Shown here piece after piece: positions 4,210 through 40,726 of a stretch of 52,617 nt of DNA. Source of the DNA: Desulfobacterales bacterium (GTDB taxonomy: Bacteria; Desulfobacterota; Desulfobacteria; Desulfobacterales; C00003060). The position numbers and the translations under genes are program-made. Every line of letters begins with the position of its first letter. The first letter of the stretch is position 1. The notes below the pieces were generated by a model that was not told where the DNA came from, ran no database searches, and saw only the letters and a program-made list of their open reading frames with translations. Location: NCBI GenBank assembly GCA_013375375.1, contig JABXJX010000004.1, forward strand, positions 1 to 52,617. Reading direction: 5' to 3'.

Positions 4210-4398
4210 ATGAAACCGAAAAAGTTTGAAGTAAAAATATACTACTCATGCTTTTGCACTTATCAGATTGAAGCAAAAAATGAGGCAGAAGCAATTATAG
4301 GAGGCAGGAATCGACAAATTGATAGTATTGAGCTATTATCTAACCTTGAAAATTGGAAAGAAGCTGATACAGCGGAATTAAATGACTATGAAGGGTAA
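4210..4398 (+). CDS. Small hypothetical protein (weak resemblance to DpnD/PcfM-type proteins)
   Basis: 62-aa ORF with ggag RBS and pattern KFEVKI......IEAKNEAEAI. Confidence 0.45.
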   Translation: MKPKKFEVKIYYSCFCTYQIEAKNEAEAIIGGRNRQIDSIELLSNLENWKEADTAELNDYEG

Positions 4399-4401
4399 GA
4401 T

Positions 4402-4461
4402 AGGGTCACATCTTAAAAATTAAGTTTAGCCTTCAACCTTTAACATTTAAGATGTGACCCT
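4402..4461. repeat. REP-like hairpin, 16-bp perfect inverted repeat
   Basis: AGGGTCACATCTTAAA ... TTTAAGATGTGACCCT; the left arm recurs at about 38825. Confidence 0.85.
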
Positions 4462-4480
4462 GCGTGCTCCTCTAGACAGA

Positions 4481-4641
4481 TGTCTGCGTATGTCCGCGTG
4501 ATTCTGCGGTAAAGAGAATAAAAGAAAATCCTGATGATCCTGTTAATCCTGTCGAATGAAAATAGCCGCTTAATGCATCAAAGACCTGTTTTTGGAATCT
4601 TTATCGTGGTATATCAAAGGTGGGGCTTGGTCCGATCCTGA
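4481..4641 (+). repeat. Intergenic repeat family A, copy 3
   Basis: Near-identical to 1253-1390, including gggcttggtcc. Confidence 0.85.
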
Positions 4642-4661
4642 AAATCCGGAGGAACAAATAA

Positions 4662-5351
4662 ATGGCAAAACAGAAGCAGCTAGTTCTTCAACATCTTGAA
4701 GATATATCCTGGAAGGTTTTGGAAGAGTATCCAGGGGTCGTCAAAGAGATGATCCGTAAAAAATCGGGTGTCTATGCCCTATATCGTAGGAACAAATTGT
4801 ACTATGTGGGCCTTGCTAGCAATCTTATGGGGCGGTTAAAAACCCATCTTAAAGATAGGCACCATGGCTCCTGGGAAAGATTCAGCGTATATCTGACAGT
4901 CCGTAATGAGCATATGAAAGAACTTGAATCTTTACTCTTGCGTATCGTTAATCCAAGCGGCAACAAACAAACCGGAAAATTTGCTAAGTCAGAAAACCTC
5001 CGTTCAACTCTCAATCAGAAAATCAAGGAGAACGATGCTGATCGGAGAGCATTGCTCATAGGTGGCCATGTTGCCCGTCGACGCCGTAGGTCTAAGATAA
5101 AGAAAGGGGAGGGGATCAAATCGCTTGCGGGAATAGTGGATCGTAGAATAAGCCTGAAAAGAGTGTATAAGGGTAAGGTATTCAAGGCATCTCTTCGAAA
5201 AGATGGTACCATCAGTTTTAAGGGAAAGGTTTATGAGTCTCCAACTGGAGCTGCCAGGAAAGTAGTCGGTCGGACTTGCAATGGTTGGAGTTTCTGGCGT
5301 TACAAGGACAAAAAAGGAGAATGGGTTCCTTTAAAAAATCTAAGAAAATAG
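4662..5351 (+). CDS. GIY-YIG nuclease fused to a C-terminal RAMA domain
   Basis: SGVYALY...YYVGLA.NL..RL..H...E.LE..NP.GN; C-terminal DGTI...YESPTGAA......NGWSFWRY. Confidence 0.8.
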   Translation: MAKQKQLVLQHLEDISWKVLEEYPGVVKEMIRKKSGVYALYRRNKLYYVGLASNLMGRLKTHLKDRHHGSWERFSVYLTVRNEHMKELESLLLRIVNPSGNKQTGKFAKSENLRSTLNQKIKENDADRRALLIGGHVARRRRRSKIKKGEGIKSLAGIVDRRISLKRVYKGKVFKASLRKDGTISFKGKVYESPTGAARKVVGRTCNGWSFWRYKDKKGEWVPLKNLRK

Positions 5352-5428: not shown

Positions 5429-7597
5429 ATGGCGAGGAAAAAGAAACCAAATTTGAAAAAAGAAACAAGTAATGGAGCCAATCTGGGTTTTGAAAGCCAG
5501 CTCTGGGCCGCGGCAGACAAGCTGCGTGGCCATATGGACGCTTCCGAGTATAAGCATGTTGTGCTCGGACTAATTTTTCTGAAGTACATTTCCGACGCCT
5601 TTCAGGCAAAATATCAGGAGTTGGAAGCGACGAAGGAGGCCGATTATACCGACCCTGAAGACCGCGATGAATATGCGGCTGCCAACATTTTCTGGGTACC
5701 CAAAGAGGCCCGCTGGGAGAAACTCCTTGCAGGGGCCAAGCAGCCGACCATTGGCAAACTCATTGATGACGCCATGGTCGCTATTGAAAAAGAGAACCCA
5801 AGCCTTAAAGGTGTTTTGCCCAAGGATTATGCCCGCCCATCTCTAGATAAACACCGTCTCGGGGAGCTTCTCGATATTATTGGAAAGATCGGCCTTGGTG
5901 ATAAGGCGGCCCAATCAAAGGACATCCTCGGCCGGGTATACGAGTATTTTCTTGGCCGTTTTGCCGCGGCTGAAGGCAAAGGCGGGGGTGAGTTCTATAC
6001 GCCCCAGTGTGTGGTGAAACTCCTGGTTAGAATGATCGAACCCTATAAGGGTAGAGTTTATGACCCTTGTTGCGGTTCTGGGGGTATGTTTGTTCAAAGC
6101 AGGCGGTTTGCTGAGGAACATAACGGAAAGCTCGGAGATATCTCTATCTACGGTCAGGAATCCAACCCTACAACATGGAAGCTGGCCATGATGAACATGG
6201 CTATACGAGGTATTGACGCCAATCTGGGCGGCCGGCATGCGGACAGCTTCCATAACGATCTGCACAAAGACCTCAGAACTGACTTCATTCTCGCAAATCC
6301 GCCCTTCAATATGAGCGACTGGGGTGGTAAACGTCTGCGCGAAGACGTCCGATGGAAGTACGGAATCCCTCCCATTTCGAATGCCAATTTCGCTTGGGTA
6401 CAACACTTCGCCTACCATCTGGCACCGAACGGATTTGCTGGGTTCGTTCTTGCTCAGGCCTCCCTTTCATCTGAGTCCCAAATAGAAAATGAGATCAGGC
6501 GCAGCATTGTAGAGGATGATTTGGTTGATTGCATTGTAACGTTGCCAGGGAAGCTCTTCTATACGACCCCCATACCCGTATGCCTATGGTTTCTCGCAAG
6601 GAAGAAGAACCACGCCAAGTTCAGAAACCGGTCAAAAGAAATCCTTTTCATTGATGCAAGTGCTCTAGGGATGCCAGAGTCCCGCACACATAGCTATTTA
6701 AGCGATAGCGATATCGAGCGAATTGCAGAGGCATACCATCAGTGGCGTTCAAAAGATGGACAGTATGAGGATCATAATGGGTTTTGCCGTTCCGTTCACA
6801 CCGATGATGTACGCAACGGCGGCTACAGTCTGTTTCCTGCGAAATATGTCGGAGTGGTTCACGTAGACGACGCCATTTCTTCCAGAGAGTTCTCGAAAAA
6901 CCTTCTTCAGAAATGGGATGAATATCTACGGTGCCGCGAAAAGCAGCATAGTGTCGCCCGACAGGTTGACAGTGCCATGCACGTTGCAGTCAGGAAACAA
7001 CGGATCATACGCCCTTCGAAATACATCAATATCAAACTCGATGACATTCTGGAACGGTCAGACGAAAGGCTAGGAAGTCGTCCAGAACCAGAGATACTTA
7101 CTTGCACAGAACGAGCTGGTCTCATTTTCCAGAAAGAGCGTTTTGCTAAACGTGTCGCTACGAAGAACACTAGTAAGTACAAAGTGGTGCGTAAAACTGA
7201 CATTGTCTACAATCCCTACTTACTTTGGGCAGGAGCCATTGACCAATGTTGGATTGTCGACATAGGTATTACATCACCAGCGTACGAAGTATTGCGTGTG
7301 AGAGATGGTTTCAATGCCACCCTCGTAGGCGCTCTGATTAAGAGTCCAAGAATGATCAAGACCTACAACGGCATTTCTGTCGGGACAGTACAGAGGAGAA
7401 GAAGATCACCTGTCGAAAGGTTCCTAGATCTGGACGTAGTAATTCCATCGCTTAATGACCAGAAACGTTTCAGTGAATTGAGCACCGCTATACAGAACGA
7501 GAGGCTTTTGCTCAGGGAAACTGCTCAGTGCATAGATGTGGTTCTTCTGGACCTGTGCAAATTTTGGCTCCTGTACAATGGAATACAGGAAGCGTAA
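5429..7597 (+). CDS. hsdM: Type I R-M N6-adenine methyltransferase fused to a single HsdS-type target recognition domain
   Basis: [26 protein letters not shown] and NPPF motifs; C-terminal KLDDIL...[13 protein letters not shown]...GITSPAYEV...[13 protein letters not shown]. Confidence 0.9.
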
Positions 7598-7627
7598 GCC
7601 GAGTGTCTCGCAACAAAGGTGAGGAGC

Positions 7628-10600
7628 ATGATTGATGGTTCTGTCAATGAGTCGGCTTTAGAACGAACCACTCTCGACTGGTTTTGGGGCATGGGTTGGC
7701 AAACAGCTTTTGGACCGGACATAAGCCCTGATGGTCTAGCCTGTGAACGCGAGAATTACGACCAAGTCTTGTTCGTTGGACGACTTTTTACTGCTCTTGA
7801 AAACATCAACCCGAACATCCCCGCAGATGCCATTGATGAAGCCGTTCGCAAGATCACGCGCACCGAATCTCCCAGCCTGATTGAGAACAACAGACGCTTT
7901 CATCTCATGCTCACCGATGGCGTGGATGTTTCCTACATGCAAGACGGCCGCGAGGTACACGATAAGGTCTGGCTGCTGGACCTTGACGACTTGGAAAACA
8001 ACGATTGGCTTGTTGTCAACCAGTTTACCGTCATTGAAGATCGCAGGAACCGCAGGCCGGACATTGTGGTGTTTGTCAATGGCCTTCCCCTGGCGGTTAT
8101 TGAACTCAAAAACCCGGCAGATGAAAAGGCGACCATTCGCCAGGCATACAACCAGTTTCAAACTTACAAGAAAGATATCCCAGCACTATTTGGCTTCAAC
8201 GAAGTGTTGGTCATTTCAGACGGCCTTGAGGCCCGGATGGGGACGCTTACAAGTGGCTGGGACCGTTTCATGCCCTGGCGGACTATTGAAGGTAAAGAGG
8301 TTGCGCCAAAGGGCTCTGTCGAGCTCGAAGTTCTCTTGAAGGGTGTCTTTGAGAAGCGGCGTTTTCTTGATCTAATCATGAATTTTGTAGTCTTTGAGGA
8401 CGATGGGGCGACTATCATGAAAAAGGCGGCGGCATATCACCAGTTTCATGCTGTTAACAGAGCAGTGGACTGCACTCTGTCAGCCTGCGGTATTGAGGCA
8501 CAACCCAACCAATTATATGCACGCTTTCCTGCCATGGATGAACAGAACCCCTTTGAGGTGAAAGAACCCTTTGCACTGTATGGTCAAAACACGGATCATT
8601 TCGGTGGGCGGCGTATCGGGGTGATCTGGCATACCCAGGGGAGCGGAAAGAGCCTCTTGATGGCGTTCTTTGCAGGGAAGGTGATCCGCCATCCGGCCAT
8701 GGAAAACCCCACTCTGCTGATGATCACTGACAGAAACGATCTGGACGACCAGCTTTTCGGCACTTTTTCCGGCTGCAAGGACCTCTTGCGCCAGACCCCT
8801 GTGCAGGCTGAAAGCAGGCCACACCTGCGGGAACTCCTGAAGGTCCCTGCCGGTGGCGTGGTGTTTACCACCATTCAGAAATTCATGCCGGATGCTAAAG
8901 GCGACCAGTACCCGGAGTTGTCGCCGCGGCGGAACATTGTGGTCATTGCCGACGAAGCCCACCGGAGCCAATATGATTTTATTGACGGTTTTGCCCGTCA
9001 CATGCACGACGCGCTGCCGAAAGCATCCTTCATTGGATTTACAGCCACGCCTATAGAAAGTACGGACAGAAGCACCCCCGCCGTATTCGGGGATTATATC
9101 GACAAGTATGATATTCTCCAGGGTGTTGAGGACAGGGCCACGGTCCGGATCTATTATGAAGGGCGACTGGCAAAAATTGAGCTGCGCGAACAGGAAAGGC
9201 CGAAGATCGATCCGGAGTTTGAAGAAATTACCGAGGGGGAGGAAGAATCCGAAAAGCAGCGCTTGCGCACCAAGTGGGCCGCACTTGAGGCGATGGTGGG
9301 CACAGAGAAGCGAATCGGCCTTGTTGCCAACGACCTGGTAAATCACTTTGAGAGTCGGCTGGCCGTGATGGATGGAAAGGCGATGATCGTGTGCATGAGT
9401 CGCCGCATTTGCGTGGACATGTACAATGCTATTGTTAAGCTTCGTCCGGATTGGCATGCCGACGATGATGACAAGGGGATGGTAAAGATCGTTATGTCCG
9501 GCGCGGCATCCGACAAAGTGGACTGGCAGCTCCATATCCGTAACAAAGCGCGCAGGGAATCCCTGGCAAAGCGGTTTAAAGACTCCCAGACCCCTTTCAA
9601 ACTGGTGATTGTCCGTGATATGTGGCTCACCGGGTTTGACTGCCCGTCGCTTCATACCATGTATGTGGATAAGCCAATGCGAGGTCACGGCCTGATGCAG
9701 GCGATTGCGAGAGTCAATCGTGTTTTCAAGGACAAACCCGGCGGCTTGGTGGTGGATTACCTGGGGCTTGCCGACCAGCTCAAACGTGCACTGGCGGACT
9801 ACACTGAGGCAGGCGGCAGGGGTAAGGCGACGGTCGACCAGGAAGAGGCTGTAGCTGTTATGACGGAAAAATACGAAATCGTCGTCTCCATGTTCCATGG
9901 GTTTGACTATGCTGTGTTTCTTCATGCTGAACCGTCGCAGCGCATAGCGGGCATTGCCGCTGCCATGGAGCATATCTTGACCCTGGAAGACGGGAAAAAG
10001 AGATATCTTGAAGCTGTAACGGCCTTGTCAAAGGCTTTTGCTTTGGCTGTGCCACGTGAGGAGGCGATTAAGATTCGCGACGATATTGGTTTTTTCCAGG
10101 AAGTCCGGAGCGGCCTGGCCAAGGCAACCGTCGAGGGGGCCAGCAAGACGCCTGAAGACCTGGACACGGCGATTCGACAACTCGTGTCCCGTGCCGTGGC
10201 TCCGGATGGGGTCGTGGACATATTCGCAGTCGCAGGGCTCAAAAAGCCCGATATATCTATCCTGTCGGATGATTTCCTTCAAGAGGTCCGGCAGCTTCCG
10301 CACCGGAACCTCGCCGTTGAATTACTCCGAAAGCTCCTGAATGACGAGATCAAGGTACGATCGAAAAAGAATGTAGTTCAAGCGAAGTCTTTTGCCGAGA
10401 TGCTGGAGAAATCAATACAGAAGTATCAAAACCGGATGATTGAGGCGGCTCAAGTTATTGAGGAGTTGATCGAATTAGCCAAGGAAATGCGCGAGGCAGG
10501 AAAGCGCGGAGAAAAACTCGGTCTGACAGAGGATGAAATTGCGTTCTATGATGCATTAGGGGTCAACGACAGTGCTGTAAAGGTGTTAGGGGATAAGACG

Positions 10601-10816
10601 CTTAAGACCATCGCACACGAATTAGTGGAGGCTGTTCGCAAAAGCGTCAGTGTTGATTGGACCGTTCGAGAGAATGCGCGAGCTCAGATTCGCGTAATTG
10701 TTAAACGCATTCTGCGCAAATACGGCTATCCCCCCGATAAGCAGGAGAAAGCGACACAGACTGTTTTGGAACAGGCAGAAGTTCTTTGTCACGACTGGAT
10801 GGAAAAAGCGGCATGA
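7628..10816 (+). CDS. hsdR: Type I R-M restriction subunit
   Basis: [20 protein letters not shown] nuclease motif, [37 protein letters not shown]; aggag before ATG 7628. Confidence 0.95.
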
Positions 10817-11102: not shown

Positions 11103-11449
11103 TTATTTGTACACAATTAAGAAACCCCGCTTGTTGCAGTCCAATTACAACAAACAGGGTTTCAGTAAAAGATACCGGGTGAAACCCCGGCAGAATAAGT
11201 AAGCTGGTTACTAACAAAGGAGCGACATTTTGTCAACCCCTTTCTTCAGACCCAGCCCAACAACACGTTTCCCCGGCATCTTTTAATCCAACCGGGGAAG
11301 GGTGTGTCCAAGATGTGCATCTAATCAGTTTTACACGTAAAATCATTCGGTTAAGGTTTCTGCCAGGATAATTATGGCCTGGTAGCATGGTATTAGTTTT
11401 CTCAAACTCTGCCAGGAGTGGAGAGTATTCTAATAGGGGGATTATTGAA

Positions 11450-11758
11450 ATGCAACAAACACTAACTGCTCTCGAAAGCTGGACTTGGTATTCATTCGAC
11501 GAATACAATCTGTCTCTGGTTCCTGCAGTTTCCGGTGTCTATTGTTTGGGAGTGAATAATGGAATCATCTACATCGGTTGTTCCGCTGATCTCCACGATA
11601 GACTGACTGACCACTACTACACCAGCGACCCTTGCATCGGTCAGGCTACTCACTTCGCAATCGAGCCTTGTACAAACTACAAGGAGAGGGAACGCGAACT
11701 GCTGGAATGGTTCCGTTCAAAATACCACAGATTACCGGAATGTAATGACCGGATTTAG
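11450..11758 (+). CDS. Small stand-alone GIY-YIG nuclease
   Basis: VPAVSGVYCL...IIYIGCS.DL.DRL.DH...ERELL..F......P.CN. Confidence 0.75.
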   Translation: MQQTLTALESWTWYSFDEYNLSLVPAVSGVYCLGVNNGIIYIGCSADLHDRLTDHYYTSDPCIGQATHFAIEPCTNYKERERELLEWFRSKYHRLPECNDRI

Positions 11759-12344: not shown

Positions 12345-12459
12345 TCTATTATTTTCTGCTTGACAGGAGGGACTATAGGATGTCCCCAAGTTCATCTGGA
12401 AACCGTTTACCGAGCTTTTTCGCTCTCTAAGTTTGGAGGGTTGCCTGCAGGAAGACACC

Positions 12460-13413
12460 ATGAGTCCAGCCAGACACAAATTAACGAAGTACTTTGCCGC
12501 ATTCTTTAAAAGAGTGAACCCCTCTCCGACCTATGAGGAAATAGCAGCCAGAGCTCATTCTGAGATTAAGGGTTTGATTGAAGACAAGGACGGCCCTGCT
12601 GGCGATCTCCAAATCAGATGCTTTCTTCAGGGGTCATACAGGCGAGAAACGGCAATCCACACAATCAACGATGTGGATCTGGTAGCCCACTGTCGTTTGT
12701 CCCACACATCTTCTGCCAATCAGAACACTCGGGATCAGATCTTCAGGGCAGTTGCCGATGCCATCCTTGCCAACAATAGGTATAAAGACAAGGTCAAGTA
12801 CCGAAAGCGTAGCATATGCATAAAAGTCATGCTCGAAGGTATAAAGGTGGAAGTTCTTCCCACGATTCGAGTTCAAGGAAAGGCTTATGAATATGAGCCG
12901 TTTTACATGTTTCAGCCAGAAGAGAATGAGAACATAGATGGCTTTTGGAGAAAAGGATTCGCACGATATCATCAGAGCCTCTGTACAGAGAAGAACGCCA
13001 GTACATCTGGTCTTTTTGTTCCAATGATAAAAGTATTCAAGCACCTTCGCTTTGTAGAATCTACCGTTTCTGAAAACGAAGCCGTGTCGTTTCATATCGA
13101 GTGCCTTCTCTATATACTGAAGAACTCTATCTATTCGGGAGCACCGTGTGAGTGTATTGAGGCGGTCCTAAAGGCCGTAGCCGGCTTTACCCCGGACAAG
13201 GCAGAACATTCGGGCATACGAAGTCCATGCAGGGACAAAAAGCTGTTCGATCCTAATGAATGGACCATCACCTCCTACCGAGAATTCAATCAAGCCGCTG
13301 CTAAGTGGTACGGAATTGCTGCGTATGCCAATGATCAAAATGACAAGGAAGAGGCAATACGAGCCTGGAAAGAGCTGTTGGGGGACAGCTATTTCCCGAG
13401 GGATCCCAAATGA
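12460..13413 (+). CDS. CD-NTase (cGAS/DncV-like, SMODS) cyclic oligonucleotide synthase
   Basis: FLQGSYRRETAI...NDVDLV, third acidic residue in VEVLPT, SFHIECLLY, C-terminal AW.ELLG..FP. Confidence 0.9.
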   Translation: MSPARHKLTKYFAAFFKRVNPSPTYEEIAARAHSEIKGLIEDKDGPAGDLQIRCFLQGSYRRETAIHTINDVDLVAHCRLSHTSSANQNTRDQIFRAVADAILANNRYKDKVKYRKRSICIKVMLEGIKVEVLPTIRVQGKAYEYEPFYMFQPEENENIDGFWRKGFARYHQSLCTEKNASTSGLFVPMIKVFKHLRFVESTVSENEAVSFHIECLLYILKNSIYSGAPCECIEAVLKAVAGFTPDKAEHSGIRSPCRDKKLFDPNEWTITSYREFNQAAAKWYGIAAYANDQNDKEEAIRAWKELLGDSYFPRDPK

Positions 13414-14375
13414 ACGTTTTCAAGATATTGTCGCTAGACGGCGGAGGGATGAAAGGGGTTTTTTCGGCAGCATTTCTTTGTGCCTTGGAGGAGAAGCTTG
13501 GCAAGAGGACGGCCGACTATTTTGATCTCGTAGTTGGCACGTCGACCGGAGGAATAATTGCCATCGCTCTTGGTCTTGGGATCTCTGCAAAGGATATTCT
13601 GGATTTTTACATGTCAGAAGGGAAACATATCTTTGGGAATAACGGATTCGTTCAAAGAGCAATCAAAGGTATCAGGGGTCTGGTCTCACCAAGACACGAT
13701 GTCAGACATTTGGAAAATGCATTGAGAAATCATTTCGGAGATAAGCGTTTGGGACATTCGAAAACCAGACTGGTTATCCCTTCGTTCAATCCCGCCACTG
13801 GTGATGTGTATCTTTATAAAACTGCACATCATTCAACCCTAAAAGAAGACTACAAGAAGTTGGCAAGGGAGGTGGCAAGGTCCACGTCGGCCGCTCCAAC
13901 ATATTTCTCTGGGAACAAGATCGGTTTGCTTACTCATCTAGTGGACGGAGGTTTGTGGGCCAACAATCCATCAATGGTTGCCGTCACTGAGGCCATCGGA
14001 TTGTTAGGGCGCTCTCCGGAAGAACTGGCTCTTCTTAGTGTGGGGACATCTTCTTCACAATTGTCTGTTCCAGAGAAGACTAGATCTTCGGGCGGTCTCC
14101 TCAGGTGGGCATGGACAATGAAAGATTTGTTCATGCATGTCCAGTCTATTACTGCACACAAACAAGCTTCTAACGTTCTTCGCCGTAGTGGCAGATATGT
14201 CAGGATAGCGCCCATCGGATCCGACTTGAGCATACGTATGGATGACCCTAAGGAAGCTTTAACACTAATTCCTTTTGGGGAGCGTGCTGCTCGAAATAGC
14301 CGGTCTAAAGTAGAGAACATGTTCTTCGCGGCACGGGCTCCCGAATTTGTCCCAGAATACACACTGACTTTATGA
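13410..14375 (+). CDS. capV: CBASS patatin-like phospholipase effector
   Basis: LDGGGMKG, GTSTGG, SAAPTYF and DGGLWANNP motifs; ATGA overlap with the CD-NTase. Confidence 0.9.
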   Translation: MNVFKILSLDGGGMKGVFSAAFLCALEEKLGKRTADYFDLVVGTSTGGIIAIALGLGISAKDILDFYMSEGKHIFGNNGFVQRAIKGIRGLVSPRHDVRHLENALRNHFGDKRLGHSKTRLVIPSFNPATGDVYLYKTAHHSTLKEDYKKLAREVARSTSAAPTYFSGNKIGLLTHLVDGGLWANNPSMVAVTEAIGLLGRSPEELALLSVGTSSSQLSVPEKTRSSGGLLRWAWTMKDLFMHVQSITAHKQASNVLRRSGRYVRIAPIGSDLSIRMDDPKEALTLIPFGERAARNSRSKVENMFFAARAPEFVPEYTLTL

Positions 14376-14429
14376 GATTTGGAGATTCCTGTTCGCATAT
14401 CATACTAGGAAAGAAAGGAGGCATGAGCC

Positions 14430-14603
14430 ATGGTATACGATCCTCACAGCGCTGACAAGGCTCTAGATGACCAAGAAGATTTCGACGAAATCGTCGAAAT
14501 TGATGAAGACGGAAACATTTACAAACCAGGTCGAGCTCCCCGTCGCTATGGTAAAAAACCTACCATATTAAGAGATCCAGAAGGGGAATACTGTACAGAG
14601 TAG
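14430..14603 (+). CDS. 57-aa acidic peptide, candidate conjugation substrate (below ORF-track cutoff)
   Basis: AAGGAGG 8 nt upstream; MVYDPHSADKALDDQEDFDEIVEIDEDGNIYKPGRAPRRYGKKPTILRDPEGEYCTE*; stops 6 nt before the E2 gene. Confidence 0.7.
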   Translation: MVYDPHSADKALDDQEDFDEIVEIDEDGNIYKPGRAPRRYGKKPTILRDPEGEYCTE

Positions 14604-14609
14604 GAAGAC

Positions 14610-15041
14610 ATGGTTAGATATCAAACAAACAAAGAGCTGATATTCATGGGCTCGGATTTGTCCCGACCAAGGATGACCGTTGAGCGAGAGAAAATGGACT
14701 ACCATTTTCCAAAATTCGGTTTCTACGGCAGTTCCGGAAAGGTCAAATCCGTTAGAGGATACTTGAGTACAAGCTACGGCAATTCCTATTTCGTGAGGAT
14801 AGACATCCCGGAAGTATATCCGTATGTCCTGCCCGAAGTATCATTGCCTTATGAATACCTACCATCGGGATGTCCCCACAAGTTTTCTGAGGATCGTATA
14901 TGTGTCATGAAAAACGATCAATGGTCCTCAACTTTGTCTCTAGCTTTCTTGGTAGGAAAAGCAGCTATCTGGTTAAATAAGTATGACTCTTGGAAGCGGC
15001 GCGGTCAAACTCAATGGCCGGGGAAGGGACAATCACATTGA
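14610..15041 (+). CDS. Stand-alone prokaryotic E2/UBC-like enzyme
   Basis: IP..YP...P.V...PH......ICV....W......WL.KY..W......WPG....H, with putative catalytic Cys in RICVM. Confidence 0.8.
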   Translation: MVRYQTNKELIFMGSDLSRPRMTVEREKMDYHFPKFGFYGSSGKVKSVRGYLSTSYGNSYFVRIDIPEVYPYVLPEVSLPYEYLPSGCPHKFSEDRICVMKNDQWSSTLSLAFLVGKAAIWLNKYDSWKRRGQTQWPGKGQSH

Positions 15042-15892
15042 CAGAAGAAAACAGATCGTCACTCGACTACAGCCGAATCAACTACCTTCTCAATCCTAAG
15101 GAATTCAAAGACGTTCGTGTCACTGTAGTTGGCTTGGGTAGTGGTGGTGCGCCTGCGGTTGACCACTTAACAATGAATGGTGTTCGTATCTGGGAATTGT
15201 ATGATCCTGATACTCTTGATTCGGTCAACCTTGTCAAGCATCCGAGAATGCGAAAGGACCTAGGGCGAACTAAGGTTGAAATACAGAAGGAGTGGATACT
15301 TGATCGAAACCCTCAGGCAATAGTCGAAACCTACGTTGAAGATGTCATACTCTCAGAGAACTTTATCGATTCCGTTCGTCGCTCTGACCTAGTCTTATGC
15401 TGCCCGGACAAGAAGAGCGTTAGAGAATTTGTGAATGATCAGTGCGTCTCTCAACAAGTACCGTTCGTGACGGCCTCCGTATTCCGAACCGGCATTGGCG
15501 GCGAAGTATATGCCTATATTCCTGACCGAACTGGCTGCTACAGATGTCTTCAGCTTTTCTCGCTTGTAAACGAGTTCAACTTGTCAGACGATTCGTTAGG
15601 GTTGACGTCTGAGGAAGAAGAGCGAATATATGGCCTTGGTGAAAAGGACTTTCATGCCTCTGGGTTATCTATTGACATTCAAACGATTGCTCTAATTCAG
15701 GCTCGAATGGCTTTGTCTGTAATCCTTCCCAATTCCTGTACTTCTTTGCCAAAGGTCAAAGGAAATTGGATTATTTTCGGGAACAGACCGGCCAAACATA
15801 TTTTTAGATATCATCTCGAAGTAAAAGAAATGTTACTGAAACCTCAGAAAACGTGCAATTGCCAGCGTAAAGATCCTGCGGAAGGAGACTAA
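15038..15892 (+). CDS. ThiF/E1-like adenylyltransferase
   Basis: VVGLGSGG, DPDTL...NLVKH, G.TK, GCYRC and C-terminal CNC; TTG start overlaps the E2 stop. Confidence 0.85.
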   Translation: MTEENRSSLDYSRINYLLNPKEFKDVRVTVVGLGSGGAPAVDHLTMNGVRIWELYDPDTLDSVNLVKHPRMRKDLGRTKVEIQKEWILDRNPQAIVETYVEDVILSENFIDSVRRSDLVLCCPDKKSVREFVNDQCVSQQVPFVTASVFRTGIGGEVYAYIPDRTGCYRCLQLFSLVNEFNLSDDSLGLTSEEEERIYGLGEKDFHASGLSIDIQTIALIQARMALSVILPNSCTSLPKVKGNWIIFGNRPAKHIFRYHLEVKEMLLKPQKTCNCQRKDPAEGD

Positions 15893-15893
15893 G

Positions 15894-17000
15894 ATGGGAC
15901 TTAGAGCCAGAAATAGGGAAACGAGACAGGCTGTTGGAAGTGTTTCAGTCGAGATATACGAAGCTGTACTCAATAGAATTCAAAGTACCATTGGAAAATC
16001 TGATTTTGAGGAAGGGGGCAAGCTCCTAGGGCGCTTACGAAATGACGGCAGGAATCTGTTAATTACCGTTGAAAGCTATATCGACTCAGGTCCCGGCGTG
16101 AGTCATTCGGCTACTCACCTACACCCAAATGGAGAGTATCAGGAAAGGGCATTTCGTCTTGTTGAGGCATTCGACTCGGAGATCGAGCATTTGGGTTCAT
16201 GGCACAGTCATCATTGCAACGGACTCCCAGAACTGAGTAATGGAGATATCAGTGGATATATTAGAAGTGTGAATAACCCCCAGTACAACCTTGACTATTT
16301 CGTTGTGATTTTGATCAATGGCTTGGTTCGCGGTAACCTTGAGAAACGATACTTTCTTTTTGAGCGACATAAGCTGAATGAATATATTGAACTTTCTGAA
16401 GGTCGCGATGTGAAAATCATTCACAGAACATCTCAACTTGACCCCATATTGGCTTCTGCAGAGAGCCTTTCGAACTCTCGAAGAAGGCAAGTTGGTCAGC
16501 ATTTCTCTGTTCAAAAGGAGAGGGAATTGCCACCCCAGAAATCCGTAAATCCATTAAACAAAATTCGACTGGAAGACAAGGAATGGATAATCGCCAGGTT
16601 TCCAAACGCTAAATTAAGTCGAAGCAAAGCGGACGGTTCTGTTTATTGGAATTGGTTCATATGGCGAGAACCAGGAAGGCTCCAGGTTAGTTTTAAATAC
16701 CCTACTGAGGCGACGATCCCGACTCCGGGGACGGCCTATCTTGAAATCCGTTTTCGTGACGAAATTCTTGTCTCAGAAGACATCGCACTGGACCGGAATA
16801 GATTTGGCCAAATTCAAAACCGTTTAAATTCTGCTGAGGCGAATTTGAAGATTAAATTCCAGAAGAACACGACCAAGACCGACGTTGTTAAGGGGACAAC
16901 AGGGACATTTTATCGAAAGATCGGGGTCAAACCTACACATTTGACAAGAAATAAGGGTCAAACAAGGGGTCAGACCTACACATTTGACAAAAAGGGATGA
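15894..17000 (+). CDS. JAB/MPN metallopeptidase with C-terminal E2/RWD-like domain; tail runs into repeats
   Basis: EEGGKLLG, SGPG, LGSWHSHH....ELSNGD; second domain RLEDKE.I..RFP...W...F.YP; last ~30 codons are repeat-derived. Confidence 0.8.
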   Translation: MGLRARNRETRQAVGSVSVEIYEAVLNRIQSTIGKSDFEEGGKLLGRLRNDGRNLLITVESYIDSGPGVSHSATHLHPNGEYQERAFRLVEAFDSEIEHLGSWHSHHCNGLPELSNGDISGYIRSVNNPQYNLDYFVVILINGLVRGNLEKRYFLFERHKLNEYIELSEGRDVKIIHRTSQLDPILASAESLSNSRRRQVGQHFSVQKERELPPQKSVNPLNKIRLEDKEWIIARFPNAKLSRSKADGSVYWNWFIWREPGRLQVSFKYPTEATIPTPGTAYLEIRFRDEILVSEDIALDRNRFGQIQNRLNSAEANLKIKFQKNTTKTDVVKGTTGTFYRKIGVKPTHLTRNKGQTRGQTYTFDKKG

Positions 17001-17411: not shown

Positions 17412-17795
17412 ATGAATAATGAAGAAGTAAGGGGATATTTTGATCAATACTGGAAACATTCATCAGTATTAAGAAATTGGTTTGTTGCGTATGGGATAGG
17501 TGCATTGGCGCTTGCGATTTATAATAAGGGTATATTTTTTTCAAATCCAGAAGACAAAAAAGTATTTGTTAGTTTAATTGTATGGGGAATATCTTTACAG
17601 GTTCTTCTTACGTTTCTGAACAAAGTTATCCATTGGTTTGTTTATTATGGAAAAAATTTAATAGAATTCCAAACGACATGGCGCTACAAAATATCATATA
17701 AAATTTCAAAATGCTTTATTATTGACATCATTGTTGATTTCTGCACTATGATTCTTTATGCTCGGGCTTTATGGATTTTTACTAGCAATTTATAA
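17412..17795 (+). CDS. AT-rich small membrane protein
   Basis: 127 aa with about 3 hydrophobic segments; aggag RBS. Confidence 0.6.
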   Translation: MNNEEVRGYFDQYWKHSSVLRNWFVAYGIGALALAIYNKGIFFSNPEDKKVFVSLIVWGISLQVLLTFLNKVIHWFVYYGKNLIEFQTTWRYKISYKISKCFIIDIIVDFCTMILYARALWIFTSNL

Positions 17796-21374: not shown

Positions 21375-21575
21375 TTGTCAGAAAAGAGTATAAAACCGGG
21401 TGAGGAGATAGTCAACGAATTCTTCGAAAGACTCAGGGATGAAAATGGCTTAGATGAGAAAACACGAGATGCCTTATATAAGCTCTATAAACAAGGGATT
21501 TTCAGGAAGACACAGGTAAAGAAGGCCCTGGATGAAATAAGGGGAGAGGCCCTTGGGGAAGAAGATGCCGACTAA
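21375..21575 (+). CDS. Small helical protein coupled to the downstream ATPase
   Basis: aaggag RBS, TTG start, 66 aa, overlaps the ATPase start. Confidence 0.6.
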   Translation: MSEKSIKPGEEIVNEFFERLRDENGLDEKTRDALYKLYKQGIFRKTQVKKALDEIRGEALGEEDAD

Positions 21576-23976
21576 ACTGAAGAAGATTAAGATTGAGGGA
21601 TTCAGAGGAGCCAGGTTTCCTCTCGAATTGGATTTTACCAAGAACGCCAAATCGACGGGGATTTACGGGGATAACGGCGGAGGGAAAAGTACTATCACCG
21701 ACGGCATCGAATGGTTTTACACTGATAGGGTAGACCACGTATGGAAAGAGGATTGCAAGCAGGAATGCCTCAGGAACACTCGCTTCCCGGATGACAAGGA
21801 CGCTGTTGTAAAGATGGAGTTCAGTGACGACAAAATCAGCTCAGATAAAAGCATCTCTTCTAGTTTCAAGAGCAAATTTTCCAACACTTCCCAAGACTTC
21901 AAAGATTATTTGGCGCAATCTGGAAAGGAACGGCTGTTCCTCAGATATGGAGATATACTCAGATTTATTCTTCTGACTAAAGGGAAAAAGCGTACTGAAA
22001 TGATGAACATCATCGGCTACAATGCTGTCGTTGATGTCAGAAACACATTAGTAACGGCATGCAATGATATCCAAAGAGACTCTAGATATCTTCAGGTGAA
22101 AGGGCAGATTACCAAGAATGAAGCGGATCTTATGCAGCACTTCAATCAGCTAATAACGGAGGAGAATGAGCTTTATGAAGTTGCGAACGAACTGGTTGAA
22201 CCTTTGAATATAGGAATCCAAGTTGCTGATAAGCAATCCTTCAAGCAATCCATGGAAAAAATCCAGACCACTTCCGATAAAGAAAAGCTGAAAAGGAGTA
22301 CGAAATTATCAGATTTCAAAAAAGCACTAGAAGATATGAAAAATCAGATGGACAAAACTGAGGACTATGACGAATTCCTCAAAGCCTATTCCGGCATACT
22401 CAAAGACAAAGAGAAAATAAAGAAGATAGGCCTGGGAGAGCTTTTGGAAAAAGGTCAGAAAGCCATAGAGGACCAGATAACAGGAGAAAACACTTGCCCG
22501 CTTTGCCTCAGCGAAATCGACGCTTCTAACGTCCTTCAGCAAGTCGCAGAAAGGATACAGGAGCTAGAGGAAATCAGCAAGGAGGTCGATGAGACAAACA
22601 CAAAGAAAGGCTCAGCCCTAGCTAACCTAAGAAACATTAAGAGTGCTGTCGCTGAAGCGGAAAGAAAAAAGCTAGATGATGACCCTGACTTCCAAACAAT
22701 AATAGGCATAGTCAAAGAGTTAAACCAGGCAATGGACGAAACGATAAAAGATACAGAACAAAAATTCCAGAAGATGGAAATACTCCAAAAAGACCCCGAC
22801 ATGTTTGAGAAAAAGTTTGACGCTGCCAAAAAGGAAATAGATGAGCTGCTCCCAAAGATTCAGGAAAAGATAGACGCTCTGGCAGAGACAGACGCGCAGA
22901 AACGCCAGTACGAGGCATATGGAAAACTGAGAGACTTGGAAAGGATATTTGAAGAAAACAAGACACTGTCAAGAGAGCTGGAGATCTTCGAAAAGCAAAT
23001 TGAAACGCTGACTAAAATAAAGGATGACTTCATCCAAATTCAAGCCACGGTTCTCCAGGACGCGCTTGACGCAATATCTGGAGACGTGGACACTTTCTAC
23101 AATATGATAAATCCTGAGGAGGGCGTAGAAAACATCAAGCTCAAACTGATAGGAGAGGAAGGAGTAGAGGTCCAATACGACTTCCACGGAAAGCAAGAGC
23201 ATCCTCCCCTCAAGTACCTGAGCGAGTCACACCTCAACTGCCTCGGCATATGCTTGTTCCTAGCTTCGGTCAAGCTGTTCAACAAAGAAAACAAGTTCTT
23301 CATCTTGGATGATGTTATCACAAGCTTTGACAGCGACCACAGGATACCTTTTCTGAGACTGTTGCAGGAACGTTTTTTAGATTATCAGGTGGTCCTGCTT
23401 ACCCATGAAAAGTTCTGGTATGAATTGATAAATGCGGAAATGAGACAGTTCGGCTGGCTTTTTAATGATGTCAGCTGGTCCATAGAAGACGGAATAGAGC
23501 TGCAGCAAAGCGTGGTAAGCGTAAAGGACCGGATAGGCTACAAACTTAGTCTGGGAATATTAGATGTTGGGAATGATCTTAGAAAACTACTTGAACAAAT
23601 TTTGAAAGAGGTATGCTGCAACCTAGAAGTCAAGGTAAGCTTCAAGTTTAACGATGAAAACGAGCGGAGGATGGTGGGCGAGTTGCTGAGCGAGCTGCGT
23701 GCCAGGCTGAATAAGCAAAAATGCGATATAAAAGACCATCCTGTCCTGAAAAGGCTGGCAACATCGTCACGCTTAACGGCCCACACTTCACATGACTCGC
23801 CACCATTTGAATCAAAAGGCGACATCCAACAAGTCCAGAAAGATATAGAGGAATTCGAGAGTCTTTTCCTATGCCAAAACTGCGGAAAGTACGTATCGCT
23901 GCAATATAAAGATGAGCCTGGCAAAAAAGTGAAATGCAGGTGCGGAGACAAAGAGCTGGAATGGGCATTCGCTTAG
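21565..23976 (+). CDS. SMC/Rad50-like ATPase with zinc hook and C-terminal HEPN-like/Zn-ribbon region (RloC-like architecture)
   Basis: GFRG, GDNGGGKS, coiled coils around CPLC, LSESH, ILDDV, LTH; C-terminal LRKLLE...AHTSH...CQNC...CRCG. Confidence 0.8.
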   Translation: MPTKLKKIKIEGFRGARFPLELDFTKNAKSTGIYGDNGGGKSTITDGIEWFYTDRVDHVWKEDCKQECLRNTRFPDDKDAVVKMEFSDDKISSDKSISSSFKSKFSNTSQDFKDYLAQSGKERLFLRYGDILRFILLTKGKKRTEMMNIIGYNAVVDVRNTLVTACNDIQRDSRYLQVKGQITKNEADLMQHFNQLITEENELYEVANELVEPLNIGIQVADKQSFKQSMEKIQTTSDKEKLKRSTKLSDFKKALEDMKNQMDKTEDYDEFLKAYSGILKDKEKIKKIGLGELLEKGQKAIEDQITGENTCPLCLSEIDASNVLQQVAERIQELEEISKEVDETNTKKGSALANLRNIKSAVAEAERKKLDDDPDFQTIIGIVKELNQAMDETIKDTEQKFQKMEILQKDPDMFEKKFDAAKKEIDELLPKIQEKIDALAETDAQKRQYEAYGKLRDLERIFEENKTLSRELEIFEKQIETLTKIKDDFIQIQATVLQDALDAISGDVDTFYNMINPEEGVENIKLKLIGEEGVEVQYDFHGKQEHPPLKYLSESHLNCLGICLFLASVKLFNKENKFFILDDVITSFDSDHRIPFLRLLQERFLDYQVVLLTHEKFWYELINAEMRQFGWLFNDVSWSIEDGIELQQSVVSVKDRIGYKLSLGILDVGNDLRKLLEQILKEVCCNLEVKVSFKFNDENERRMVGELLSELRARLNKQKCDIKDHPVLKRLATSSRLTAHTSHDSPPFESKGDIQQVQKDIEEFESLFLCQNCGKYVSLQYKDEPGKKVKCRCGDKELEWAFA

Positions 23977-24045
23977 TTTAAGGGAGAACTTAGGAGCTGT
24001 TCTTGACCACGCTGAATAAGTCTGATGCGAAGATCGGAAGTGCCC

Positions 24046-24207
24046 ATGGCAGGTAGATTTGGAAAATATGGTGATTTAAAGCGCAAGGAGCGTTTGCGCA
24101 AAAACCGCCTCAAGCCACCTGTTCCTCAGCAGCGAGGAAAGGACAAACCTTTAAAAGGGTCTCGAAAGAGCAAAGTGCCGCGCGGAGTTCAAACAGAAGA
24201 GCGATAA
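24046..24207 (+). CDS. 53-aa basic junction micro-ORF
   Basis: Paralogue of 18811; followed by a family B linker and a ggatgtcccgg end. Confidence 0.55.
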   Translation: MAGRFGKYGDLKRKERLRKNRLKPPVPQQRGKDKPLKGSRKSKVPRGVQTEER

Positions 24208-24296
24208 AAAAGAATCAAATGTTGAAATATCATGGATGTCCCGGACGTTTCCAAACTCATTATTTCTGATCCGACCCTGTTAGTTCTCGAGGAGGT

Positions 24297-26063
24297 TTGA
24301 AGATGAGAATTCGCGCAATCCATGCAGAAAGTATCCCGCCCGTTCAAGTCTTCTCCGTGTCTGAATTGTCAGACACCATAGTAATTGCAGGCCCAAATGG
24401 AGTTGGAAAGACTCGATTGATAGAATCATTACTGAAGTATTTCAGAGCGCCGCAAAAGGTCACGAATATAAAATTGGAACTTGAAGCAACGTGCAAAGAA
24501 GAAGCTGATGCGTGGGGGAAAAAGACTTTGGAAACGCAGAATCCGGAAGATACTCAGAAGTTTACGGTGACTCTGCAGCGAAATCGTCAACGTCGCAAGT
24601 GGAGAAGTAGCATTATTCTATTTGAAAGTGACAGAACTATCCAGAAAATACAGCCTTTTCACTTCACCTTCGATTTGGCAGACCCGTACGAGGAAAGTAT
24701 CGGCTGGGACGTCACATTCGGTTATATGCGCAATAGATTTCAAGATACTTTGCATTCAATATTCAGAAAAATAGAACATCAGAAACAGAGTATCGCCTCA
24801 AGAGCTATTGAATTAAAGAAACAGGGTAAAGAGATAATGCATCTCAAATTCGAAGACCCGATGGAACCATTTAAGGAGGCATTTTCCAGATTATTGCCAG
24901 ATAAGAGTCTGTTAGACCCTTCACCCAAAAAGCAGACTTTAGAGTACGAGTTTGAAGGGGGAACCTTCGACGTAAAAGCTCTTAGCTCAGGCGAAAGAGA
25001 GGTAGTCAATATCGTATTCGACTTCCTATTAAGAAGCCCTGAACACTGTATAGTGTTTTTCGACGAACCGGACCTACATCTGCATCCTGAGTTGATTCAT
25101 AGCTTGATTGATACGCTTGGATCTATAGGAAAGAACAACCAATTTATTTTATGTACCCATTCGGCACATATCATAACAGCCTCTTTGGATAACTCAGTCA
25201 TTTTCTTATCCCCAAACAAAGGAGATAATGAGAATCAGGCAATGGTCATAGACGAGAACGATGAGACAAACAGGGCTCTGAAACTTCTTGGACATTCCAT
25301 AGGCATAATCTCTTTGGGAAGAAGAATTGTATTCATAGAAGGACAAAATGCGAGTTTGGACAAACAAACATATGGAACAATTGTCAAAAATAGATTTCCA
25401 AGCCTCGTTTTAGTTCCAGGTGGGGGTCGAGATACGATTGTAAGCTTTTCAACAATAATGGAAAATATTCTTTCCAAGACGCTTTGGGGCGTAGACTTTT
25501 TCATGTTGTGTGATAGAGATGCCATTCCTTTTCATGAGCCTGGTAAAGATATCGAGGCACTATCTCGAGGCCGACTGAGATTGCTCAGCAAGTACCATCT
25601 CGAAAACTATTTCTTGGATGAGGCTATCTGGGCCAGTATTTTCTCTTCAATGGAGCCGGAGGAATCGTGGTTAGTTTCTTCGGATGACATATACGAGTTT
25701 TTTAAGGCAACTGCCAGAGAGTTTCTTTCATATGTCACCGCCTTATCAGTTGCAGGAAGTTTACGAAAGATTGTTGGCAATCTTGATATTATGCCTAAGA
25801 ACTGTCACTCTAAGTCGTTGGACGAGCTATTGCCAATTATTCTACAAAAGAGGCAGGAAGAACAACAAAGAGTCGAAGATATTTTGAGATCAGAAGAAGT
25901 CTCTGAGTTAACTAAACAGACATACGACAGACTGAATCAGAGTATTGAGGATGACACAGCATTATGGAAAAATGAAATTCCGGGAAAGCCGATACTGCAT
26001 GCATTTGCCAGCAAAGCAAAGATTCCTATTGGCAGGGCCAAAGAGAATGGGGTCAAACCTTGA
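24297..26063 (+). CDS. ABC-type ATPase fused to TOPRIM-like (OLD/DUF4435) nuclease; C-terminus clipped by hairpin
   Basis: GPNGVGKT, LSSGE, FDEPDLHLHP, CTHS; FIEG....D, GG, CDRD, LENY; final ENGVKP* is encoded by the 26041 element. Confidence 0.8.
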   Translation: MKMRIRAIHAESIPPVQVFSVSELSDTIVIAGPNGVGKTRLIESLLKYFRAPQKVTNIKLELEATCKEEADAWGKKTLETQNPEDTQKFTVTLQRNRQRRKWRSSIILFESDRTIQKIQPFHFTFDLADPYEESIGWDVTFGYMRNRFQDTLHSIFRKIEHQKQSIASRAIELKKQGKEIMHLKFEDPMEPFKEAFSRLLPDKSLLDPSPKKQTLEYEFEGGTFDVKALSSGEREVVNIVFDFLLRSPEHCIVFFDEPDLHLHPELIHSLIDTLGSIGKNNQFILCTHSAHIITASLDNSVIFLSPNKGDNENQAMVIDENDETNRALKLLGHSIGIISLGRRIVFIEGQNASLDKQTYGTIVKNRFPSLVLVPGGGRDTIVSFSTIMENILSKTLWGVDFFMLCDRDAIPFHEPGKDIEALSRGRLRLLSKYHLENYFLDEAIWASIFSSMEPEESWLVSSDDIYEFFKATAREFLSYVTALSVAGSLRKIVGNLDIMPKNCHSKSLDELLPIILQKRQEEQQRVEDILRSEEVSELTKQTYDRLNQSIEDDTALWKNEIPGKPILHAFASKAKIPIGRAKENGVKP

Positions 26064-40084: not shown

Positions 40085-40726
40085 ATGATAGCATGGTCCG
40101 ACCCTAAAAGAATGACAAACCCTAATATCGCATGGTTTCGGTTTTACGAAGAATTAAATGATTTTCTTCCGGCTGATAAAAGAAAAATTGCATTCCCTTA
40201 TAAATTTTCCGGCAGTCCATCAGTAAAGGATGTTATTGAAGCAATCGGCGTGCCGCACACAGAAGTTGATCTCATCCTGATCAACGGCAATTCAGTGAAA
40301 TTTGACCATAAACTTTCTCATGGCGATCATATCTCGGTTTACCCTGTTTTTGAAAACCTGGACATATCTCATGTCACCCGGCTGAGGCCAAAACCCCTGC
40401 GCAAAACCCGTTTTATAGTGGATGTGCATCTCGGCAGGCTGGCACAACTGCTTCGTATGCTCGGTTTTGATACTCTTTACAAAAACAATTACAAAAATGA
40501 AGAGATTATTACAGAAGCGCTTACGCAAAAACGAATTATCCTGACGCGTGACCCTGGTCTTTTGAAAAACAGGTCCATAACACACGGCTATCTGATAAGG
40601 GGAACAGATCCCCATGAACAGGCTCGTGAAGTGATCTGCCGGTTTGATCTGTATTCACAGGCAAAACCGTTTATTCGATGCAACTCGAGACAAAATAAAG
40701 GGGTCAAGTCTACGTTTGACTCTTAG
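40085..40726 (+). pseudogene. Mut7-C ubiquitin/PIN RNase protein, truncated within the zinc ribbon
   Basis: FRFYEELNDFL, SVKDVIEAIGVPHTEVD, DVHLGRLA.LLRMLGFD, ILTRD; ends PFIRCN then repeat-encoded KGVKSTFDS*. Confidence 0.8.

Follow-up and report, generated by a model that had tools for sequence, protein, structure and literature searches.

A conserved small gene with a Gly-Glu-Tyr tail beside the split E2, E1 and JAB genes of a CBASS operon: a candidate tag or docking partner

Described conjugation systems and the operon in the window

The conjugation machinery of type II CBASS is described as working on the signalling enzyme: Cap2 and Cap3 act on the C-terminus of the CD-NTase (Ledvina et al., 10.1101/2022.03.31.486616; Jenson et al., PMC10097602). 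In canonical systems this terminus is given as Gly or Ala, and exchange of the C-terminal Gly for bulky or charged residues is reported to abolish the conjugation of cGAS by Cap2 (PMC10097602). In the parts of these and a related report that treat conjugation, the CBASS, Pycsar and lactamase pathways all conjugate the signalling enzyme itself and encode no ubiquitin-like protein, or Ubl (PMC10097602; PMC11601596; 10.1101/2022.03.31.486616). Cap2, as well as ATG7, carries a catalytic cysteine between the zinc knuckles of its E1; in Cap2 this cysteine is described as dispensable in vitro, where the E2 cysteine can substitute (Ledvina et al., 10.1101/2022.03.31.486616). In the 6a operons a lactamase gene is paired with a gene in which E2, E1 and JAB are fused, the E2 part having a conserved His and Cys; such operons usually consist of two genes, and the passages that describe them mention no small protein (Iyer, Burroughs and Aravind 2006, PMC1779556). 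In type I Bub, by the account in PMC11601596, the modifier is made fused to the E2 (BubAB) and is released by the JAB peptidase.

We examined a stretch of DNA of 52,617 nucleotides (the window), whose plus strand carries, in this order, genes for a CD-NTase and CapV, a 234-nt gap with a small gene, and genes for an E2, an E1 and a JAB peptidase (Table 1). The presence of CD-NTase, CapV, E1, E2 and JAB in one operon resembles type II CBASS, as do the adenylating ThiF-type E1 and the JAB protein, which belongs with the trimming and reversing peptidases and is like Cap3 in structure. There are also differences. Cap2 is an E2-E1 fusion, whereas the E2 and E1 of the window are separate genes; the window's E2 keeps the canonical UBC His, Cys and Trp that the E2 of Cap2 is described as lacking (10.1101/2022.03.31.486616); its E1 is without a conserved crossover-loop cysteine; its CD-NTase ends in Lys, not Gly or Ala; and the operon contains an extra conserved small gene, whose product we refer to by its Gly-Glu-Tyr (GEY) tail.

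Comparison with 6A-MBL operons is similarly two-sided. Relatives of the small gene lie in operons of lactamase, E2, E1 and JAB at 52 of 81 loci, with the 6a-like E2 His and Cys, but the three enzymes of these relatives are separate and the GEY-tailed gene stands between lactamase and E2; the lactamase loci are a split version of the 6a operons. The window operon itself has no lactamase gene, having a CD-NTase and CapV instead, and its E1 (2.2e-10) and JAB (0.0031) match the NCBIfam model 6A-MBL_cap2_3 far below the family cut-off, with a score of 39.7 bits against 320. As in our locus, the E1 and E2 of Bil and Bub are separate and go with a JAB peptidase; both pathways also have a modifier gene of their own, a part that the small gene would play here, and BubAB is paralleled by nine natural peptide-E2 fusions. 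The Bil and Bub modifiers are beta-grasp proteins, however, whereas our peptide has about 50 residues, shows no beta-grasp in its model, ends in GEY rather than Gly and is found with modules of CBASS or lactamase type.

The ThiF-like enzymes MccB and PaaA adenylate short ribosomal peptides at a C-terminus other than Gly. They show that an E1-like enzyme can have so short a substrate, and the window's E1 matches both by sequence (MccB, E 3.9e-11; PaaA, 1.9e-4), but they are enzymes of antibiotic biosynthesis and have no E2 or JAB partner. Pup and UBact resemble the peptide in being small and acidic, with a disordered N-terminus and a proposed C-terminal conjugation. The preliminary description had proposed disorder of the Pup/UBact type; this did not hold up, as we found no sequence relation in Pfam, NCBIfam, PADLOC or the PDB, and the middle of the peptide is predicted to form a small beta-sheet (pLDDT 66). 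Pup is conjugated by a glutamine-synthetase-like ligase, not by E1 and E2; Pfam finds no Pup-type ligase in the window operon, where the neighbours are E2, E1 and JAB. The peptide is Ubl-like in being encoded beside E1, E2 and a deconjugating peptidase at 75 of 81 loci. In place of the Ubl C-terminal Gly it has an invariant Gly52, yet a conserved Glu-Tyr follows, and the natural ends are mostly at Tyr54. In its workings the system resembles type II CBASS, 6A-MBL, Bil and Bub, yet it lacks defining features of each.

Table 1. Features of the window and of related loci (positions are those of the sequence named in the second column)
Feature	Sequence	Position	Strand	Basis or remark
Defence island around the operon, with the Ub-Mut7C gene further on	window	5429..10816; 11387..11758; 21553..26063; 40085..40726		
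CD-NTase (SMODS)	window	12433..13413	+	SMODS 4.8e-15; PADLOC cyclase 1.5e-27; C-terminus ...SYFPRDPK
CapV patatin-like phospholipase effector	window	13410..14375	+	NCBIfam CBASS_lipase 2.3e-77, above cut-off
Shine-Dalgarno-like AAGGAGG	window	14415..14421	+	8 nt before ATG; direct sequence reading
GEY-tailed peptide gene	window	14430..14603	+	57 codons and stop; homologues, synonymous-codon pattern
Inverted repeat inside the peptide ORF	window	14479..14500		9-bp stem; terminator-like on minus strand
Motif A, residues 20-31, EIVEIDEDGNIY	window	14487..14522	+	predicted beta-hairpin, predicted E1-docking strand
Motif B, residues 42-54, KKPTILRDPEGEY	window	14553..14591	+	basic patch, last strand, invariant tail
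Cys-Thr-Glu extension, candidate pro-peptide	window	14592..14600	+	unconserved; missing from most relatives
Stand-alone E2, 143 aa	window	14610..15041	+	PADLOC E2 models; alignment; weak UQ_con match for relatives
Stand-alone ThiF/MoeB-type E1	window	14990..15892	+	GLGSGG; CxxC...CxC; start TTG 14990 or ATG 15014
JAB/JAMM peptidase, 368 aa	window	15894..17000	+	catalytic motif intact, residues ~15-180; extra C-terminal domain
Extra domain of JAB protein, residues ~220-330	window	16551..16880		alpha-beta-alpha, confidently modelled
127-aa ORF after the operon	window	17412..17795		small-membrane-protein-like; no family match
Stand-alone cassette (peptide, E2, E1, JAB, tail-bearing second protein)	L018/L020	1881..4651		
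Second tail-bearing gene	L004	8750..9160		
Second tail-bearing gene	L005	7117..8244		
Second tail-bearing gene	L007	10531..10890		
Second tail-bearing gene	L008	10590..10967		
Second tail-bearing gene	L013	4413..5828		
Second tail-bearing gene	L018/L020	about 4271..4677		
Second tail-bearing gene	L019	4103..5428		
Lone peptide homologue, phage contig	L075	4651..4794		
Lone peptide homologue, phage contig	L061	7986..8129		
Lone peptide homologue, phage contig	L083	3113..3364		

From their conserved motifs, the E1, E2 and JAB enzymes look active. His90, Cys98 and Trp105 are invariant in the alignment of the E2, whose relatives make up 254 clusters and carry the precomputed Pfam assignment PF26395. 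The E2 and E1 genes are in separate frames in the window and in 40 aligned related loci. At either of its two possible starts the E1 gene overlaps the end of the E2 gene; of these starts the ATG is more likely, since the relatives align from there. Across a 40-row alignment the E1 retains GLGSGG, the Asp region and two zinc knuckles, with no conserved crossover-loop cysteine between the knuckles, and among solved structures it is closest in sequence to ThiF, MoeB, SAE2, MccB and UBA5. The residues of the JAB metal site (E39, H104, H106, S115 and D118) are invariant or nearly so in the alignment, and the JAB domain superposes on Cap3 (9ild_A; Z 15.0, rmsd 2.5, 141 aligned) and also on Rpn11.

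Beyond its catalytic part the JAB protein carries an additional domain that is kept in both CBASS and lactamase loci, followed by a disordered end (residues 330-368). Structural matches to this domain are mid-range only (VIA), namely DR_1245 (Z 8.9, rmsd 5.4, 107 aligned) and the secretion chaperone SicP (Z 6.8), and Foldseek on the JAB protein matched the JAB part alone and gave no fold name for the C-terminal domain. It may be a peptide-binding domain.

The small gene, its product and its neighbours

The small ORF begins with an ATG and ends with a TAG (14601-14603), its product is MVYDPHSADKALDDQEDFDEIVEIDEDGNIYKPGRAPRRYGKKPTILRDPEGEYCTE, and it occupies the space between the CapV and E2 genes. 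The preliminary description had proposed an unannotated ORF with an AAGGAGG ribosome-binding site in this gap; direct reading of the sequence confirmed the ORF, and homologues mark it as a real gene. The product, at 57 aa, is shorter than the 60-aa default minimum for listing ORFs, which fits the absence of the gene from the ORF track. We found no description of a GEY-tailed peptide in the literature, where a mention is possible in supplements or in van den Berg et al. 2024, a study reportedly cited for 6A-MBL operons.

Conserved homologues had been named in advance as one test of this ORF, and they were found, as 13 database proteins and 81 related loci. The former, recovered by a word-indexed protein search, are 54-58 aa long and 65-93% identical to the peptide. 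By back-translated motif scans we obtained one locus from species genomes, in a Desulfobacula MAG, and 93 relatives from metagenome contigs; 80 of the latter were retrieved and, together with the genome locus, form the set of 81 loci used throughout. A profile search of 1.84 billion representative proteins returned 129 matches at E<=1e-3 and 28 at E<=1e-10. Sorted by reading their sequences, about 85 of the 129 are small and carry the motif at their C-terminus or close to it; matches of 337-6971 aa were set aside as unrelated repeats, in which the acidic hairpin part alone aligned, in several stretches.

Among 64 distinct DNA versions of the gene, the invariant Leu and Arg residues are each spelt with six codons, and Gly and Pro with four. 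This use of all synonymous codons argues for selection on the peptide rather than on the DNA. By these comparisons, the ORF is a real, strongly conserved small gene. Its distribution is sporadic: there is one copy in its own 2.2-Mb MAG and none in 400 other genomes sampled from the same phylum.

The peptide matched no family of Pfam, NCBIfam, PADLOC or PHROGs. Among PDB sequences nothing related came out below E 0.08, and the ESM Atlas held no neighbour of use. The operon DNA had no nucleotide match among phage records, and tblastn found none for a phage-type copy in phage records or for the window's peptide in plasmid records. A promoter/terminator scan of the region stayed at chance level, with 8 matches where 9.7 were expected and 8 where 6.5 were. 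The inverted repeat inside the ORF, which has its source in repeated acidic codons, was discounted because such matches are at chance level in this region.

The peptide has a pI of 4.4 and divides into two halves, with 12 acidic and 1 basic residues in positions 1-30 and 4 acidic and 7 basic in positions 31-57; these counts agree with the acidic N-half and basic linker that had been noted earlier. Twelve residues are invariant in an alignment of 66 sequences (E23, I24, D25, E26, G28, K43, L47, R48, D49, P50, G52 and E53), and Q15, E20, T45 and Y54 are nearly so, Y54 being present in at least 90%. Conservation centres on two motifs: motif A, an acidic hairpin (EIVEIDENG) with the consensus E-[IV]-[IV]-E-I-D-E-x-G, and motif B, with the consensus K-x-T-[IV]-L-R-D-P-x-G-E-Y and the tail LRDPEGEY. 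AF2 on the 66-row alignment gave a weak model (pLDDT 66, pTM 0.38) with one helix and two or three short strands but no beta-grasp; the N-terminus is disordered, strands are placed at residues 20-24 and 45-49, and the tail is loose from residue 50. With 57 residues, about 19 of them disordered at the N-terminus, the peptide is probably too short for a beta-grasp.

We next took a census of the C-terminal ends in 78 copies, recognised by motif pattern in 82 sources. The gene ends directly after GEY or GEF in 42 copies; 1-5 further unconserved residues follow GEY in 25, including the window's CTE, and 14 residues in one. In nine copies (L026, L027, L034, L043, L045, L048, L049, L050 and L052) the reading frame continues into the E2, and in one it runs off the contig. 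One residue replaces the stop/start overlap in the peptide-E2 fusions, which fall into two sequence groups and so probably stem from two fusion events; a cluster of fused 192-aa proteins (P0236) has 30 member sequences. Distant relatives retain G-E-Y even where RDP has decayed, with A-E-Y in one. A conserved core that ends at GEY and is followed by 0-5 unconserved residues, or by the E2 in frame (9/78), agrees with the processable-looking C-terminus suggested in the preliminary description. Of the two cleavage sites suggested there, the one within PEG/EY is still possible, Gly52 being invariant in the 66 sequences and replaced by Ala in one distant relative, whereas GEYC/TE has lost its footing, in that Cys55 is unconserved and most relatives end at Tyr54. 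Ubiquitin ends in LRLRGG, and L47-R48-x-x-x-G52 has the same spacing, which speaks for a reactive end at Gly52, once Glu-Tyr is taken off; that most of the genes end at Tyr54 favours Tyr54 as the mature end.

To survey the neighbourhoods, we compared the ORFs at the 81 loci with the proteins of the window and with an HMM built from seven Pfam-verified lactamases. All 81 loci were recovered via the peptide, so that linkage to the E2 is counted from the peptide side only. On this count a split-module E2 comes directly after the small gene, or is fused to it, at 75 of the 81 loci, and the E1 gene and then a long JAB gene follow the E2 wherever the contig extends. The other six comprise two contig ends, a frameshifted fusion (L048), a short contig with a shortened copy of the peptide (L021) and two phage contigs (L061 and L075). 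Where the distance was measured, the stop codon of the small gene shares one base with the called E2 start in 31 of 67 cases; outliers in this distance are artefacts, as the E2 starts were taken as first-start calls.

The gene upstream is much more varied. It encodes a metallo-beta-lactamase at 52 of the 81 loci, a CD-NTase at 8, CapV at 4 and both CD-NTase and CapV at 3; 8 contigs begin too soon to tell, and 6 loci have other neighbours, among them L018/L020. Lactamase_B of Pfam matched in eight of nine loci checked, and did not match the L033 candidate. L018/L020 is a stand-alone cassette, with neither CD-NTase nor lactamase and with housekeeping genes (Bax1-I, zinc-ribbon) preceding it. Since the upstream partner varies while the E2 stays, the peptide is part of the E2-E1-JAB module rather than a companion of the cyclase. 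In at least 75 of the 81 loci the small gene is thus a core component.

Possible roles of the peptide

If the peptide belongs to a conjugation module, the question arises of what that module conjugates. None of 12 related CD-NTase tails ends in Gly and two, with identical sequences, end in Ala, the others ending in K, E, Q or S; the last residue of the window's CD-NTase is Lys. The C-terminal tails of the metallo-beta-lactamases are unconserved in related loci. By sequence, then, the usual conjugation substrate, the CD-NTase end, looks unfit here, and the tail of the peptide is the sole conserved C-terminal element that recurs in all three contexts. The window's CD-NTase does end in PRDPK, as had been pointed out, but the proposal that RDP is a docking motif shared with the peptide fared poorly and we regard it as weak: PRDP occurs in 4 of 12 CD-NTase tails and in no metallo-beta-lactamase tail.

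We modelled the complex of E1 (40-row alignment), ATP and peptide (66-row alignment). The scores were 0.59, 0.69 and 0.67 (median 0.67), whereas none of three controls rose above 0.00. Among solved complexes 58 of 80 come up to that mark, and among mismatched pairs 2 of 110; these counts hold roughly here, since our runs used their own alignments and a riding ligand and the calibration had neither. Agreement between the runs extends to at least 39% of contacts, with a partner pLDDT of at least 46. The confident interface joins peptide residues 21-28 and 30 to E1 residues 190, 193-194, 257-258 and 279-287; residues 279-287 form the strand just before the second zinc knuckle, and 190-194 lie just after the first CxxC. 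We take this face to be the side of the adenylation domain where the ubiquitin-like partners of ThiF and MoeB sit. The model supports docking of the motif A hairpin on the E1. Residues 44-57 of the tail lie outside the confident interface, and because the tail is not placed, the model speaks for E1 binding and not for adenylation.

The most likely explanation, in our view, is that the peptide is a short tag without the ubiquitin fold, or a docking partner, of E2, E1 and JAB. The more specific reading, that it is a fold-less ubiquitin-like tag of about 50 residues, trimmed by JAB, activated by E1 and serving the split E2/E1/JAB in a CBASS operon, we consider evenly balanced between true and false. 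In such a scheme the motif A hairpin would join the C-terminal sheet of the ThiF-type E1 as an added strand, and the flexible LRDPEGEY tail would reach the adenylation site. JAB would first trim whatever follows the conserved core, CTE here and the whole E2 in the fusions, and might also remove Glu-Tyr, exposing Gly52. The new C-terminus would be adenylated by the E1, and the acyl group would pass straight to Cys98 of the E2, the E1 having no conserved crossover-loop cysteine; the dispensability of the E1 cysteine in Cap2 makes such a direct transfer plausible in the window's module. From the E2 the peptide would go to a target lysine, possibly on the CD-NTase or on a phage protein, and JAB would also reverse the conjugation. 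Our results bear on the reality of the gene, its conservation and synteny, the pattern of its C-terminal ends, the intact catalytic motifs of all three enzymes and E1 binding in a passing model; that the peptide is adenylated and forms a thioester, where it is cut and what it is joined to are the parts of this scheme that we infer.

We favour the tag because of the linkage to E2 at 75 of 81 loci, the way in which the peptide follows the module, and the C-terminal pattern of a processed modifier; the lack of a Gly-ended CD-NTase, the intact enzyme motifs, the E1 binding model and the LRLRGG-like spacing point the same way. Several observations count against it. Most copies end in a bulky Tyr, which by analogy is unfavourable, bulky replacements being those that abolish conjugation by Cap2. 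If Gly52 were the mature end, the near-invariance of Glu53-Tyr54 past the cut would be unusual for a pro-peptide. The weak model predicts no beta-grasp and the complex model leaves the tail outside the confident interface, and the in-frame E2 fusions fit a permanent appendage of the E2 just as well.

The main alternative is that the peptide is a non-covalent subunit or regulator of E1 and E2 (an adaptor, a pseudo-substrate brake or a specificity factor) that is never adenylated or conjugated. The hairpin would then bind the E1 and LRDPEGEY another site, and the real substrate would have to be sought elsewhere, for instance in the CD-NTase, the lactamase-fold protein or a membrane-anchored paralogue. 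The confident contacts of the model are those of motif A on the surface of E1, with no tail; the nine in-frame fusions to the E2 N-terminus (of 78 copies) are what one expects of subunits of one complex; motif B is also found internally, ahead of a methyltransferase domain, in L005, L013 and L019; and a C-terminal Tyr is odd for an E1 substrate. Such a partner, however, leaves unexplained why 42 of 78 copies stop exactly after GEY and why residues beyond are unconserved, and under this reading the CBASS, lactamase and L018/L020 loci offer the module no plausible substrate that ends in Gly or Ala. We regard it as a tenable but tentative alternative. Less is to be said for the peptide as an acceptor, whose Lys43 would receive the C-terminus of the CD-NTase or lactamase-fold protein as a priming target for 'cGASylation'. 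Lys43 is invariant in the 66 sequences, and the conjugation targets of type II CBASS are described as not settled (PMC10097602), but the C-termini of the CD-NTases and lactamases here are neither Gly-ended nor conserved, the module exists without either enzyme in L018/L020, and neither the conserved end with its variable extensions nor the E2 fusions are accounted for; an acceptor role is improbable. Least probable of all, to the point that we give it hardly any credence, is that the ORF is a leader or coupling element that tunes the expression of E2, E1 and JAB while its peptide has no function. The strong ribosome-binding site, the 6-nt gap to the E2 gene in the window and the 1-nt stop/start overlap in 31 of 67 relatives would suit such an element; yet it is the amino acids and not the codons that are kept over 64 DNA versions down to 43% identity, lone homologues on phage contigs have no E2 downstream, and a specific interface with the E1 is predicted.

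Returning to the tag, we also considered a wider form, in which the peptide would stand for a new class of Ubl: a shared hairpin-plus-tail modifier of about 50 residues ending in Gly-Glu-Tyr, matured by JAB and conjugated by the split E1 and E2, would serve CBASS, lactamase and stand-alone loci alike, with a membrane-anchored, tail-bearing paralogue and with phage decoys, copied from the peptide, that jam the host's E1. This we find possible but doubtful.

With either a tag or an obligatory E1/E2 partner, this CBASS/lactamase branch would carry a dedicated component: in the one case a very small modifier without the ubiquitin fold, which would shift the species that should be sought as the conjugated product. 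For annotation, the gene is a case of a core component that lies below common ORF cut-offs. The peptide would also be a minimal, easily synthesised substrate for E1/E2/JAB chemistry, and the natural peptide-E2 fusions and lone phage copies are ready-made tests of processing and of counter-defence.

Phage copies, a second tail-bearing gene and the surroundings of the operon

Lone homologues of the peptide, ending in or near LRDPEGEY, are present on three phage contigs, with no E2, E1 or JAB in the retrieved stretches. The phage genes found with them are terminase large subunit and portal on L075, terminase on L061, and terminase and head-tail adaptor on L083. Among viral contigs, the first alignment recovered none and a phage-type alignment recovered one (L083). 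These homologues may act as decoys against the module of the host, or the host gene may have come from them.

In eight related loci a second gene follows JAB, and its product ends in ...RKKTILRDPxGEY, the same tail as that of the small peptide (Table 1). The product consists of a hydrophobic helix, a long helix and a hairpin, and then the tail; in L005, L013 and L019 the frame runs on from this module through a motif-A-like stretch into a SAM methyltransferase domain. The window has no second tail-bearing gene, and the 127-aa ORF after its operon is unrelated to the tail-bearing second protein of the relatives.

The operon of the window is set in a defence island, with genes for the HsdM and HsdR of a type I R-M system, a small GIY-YIG/T5orf172-like ORF and two AAA_15/SMC-like ATPases. 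Further along the window there is a gene for a Ub-Mut7C and Mut7-C RNase protein, a true beta-grasp fusion that is unrelated to the operon.
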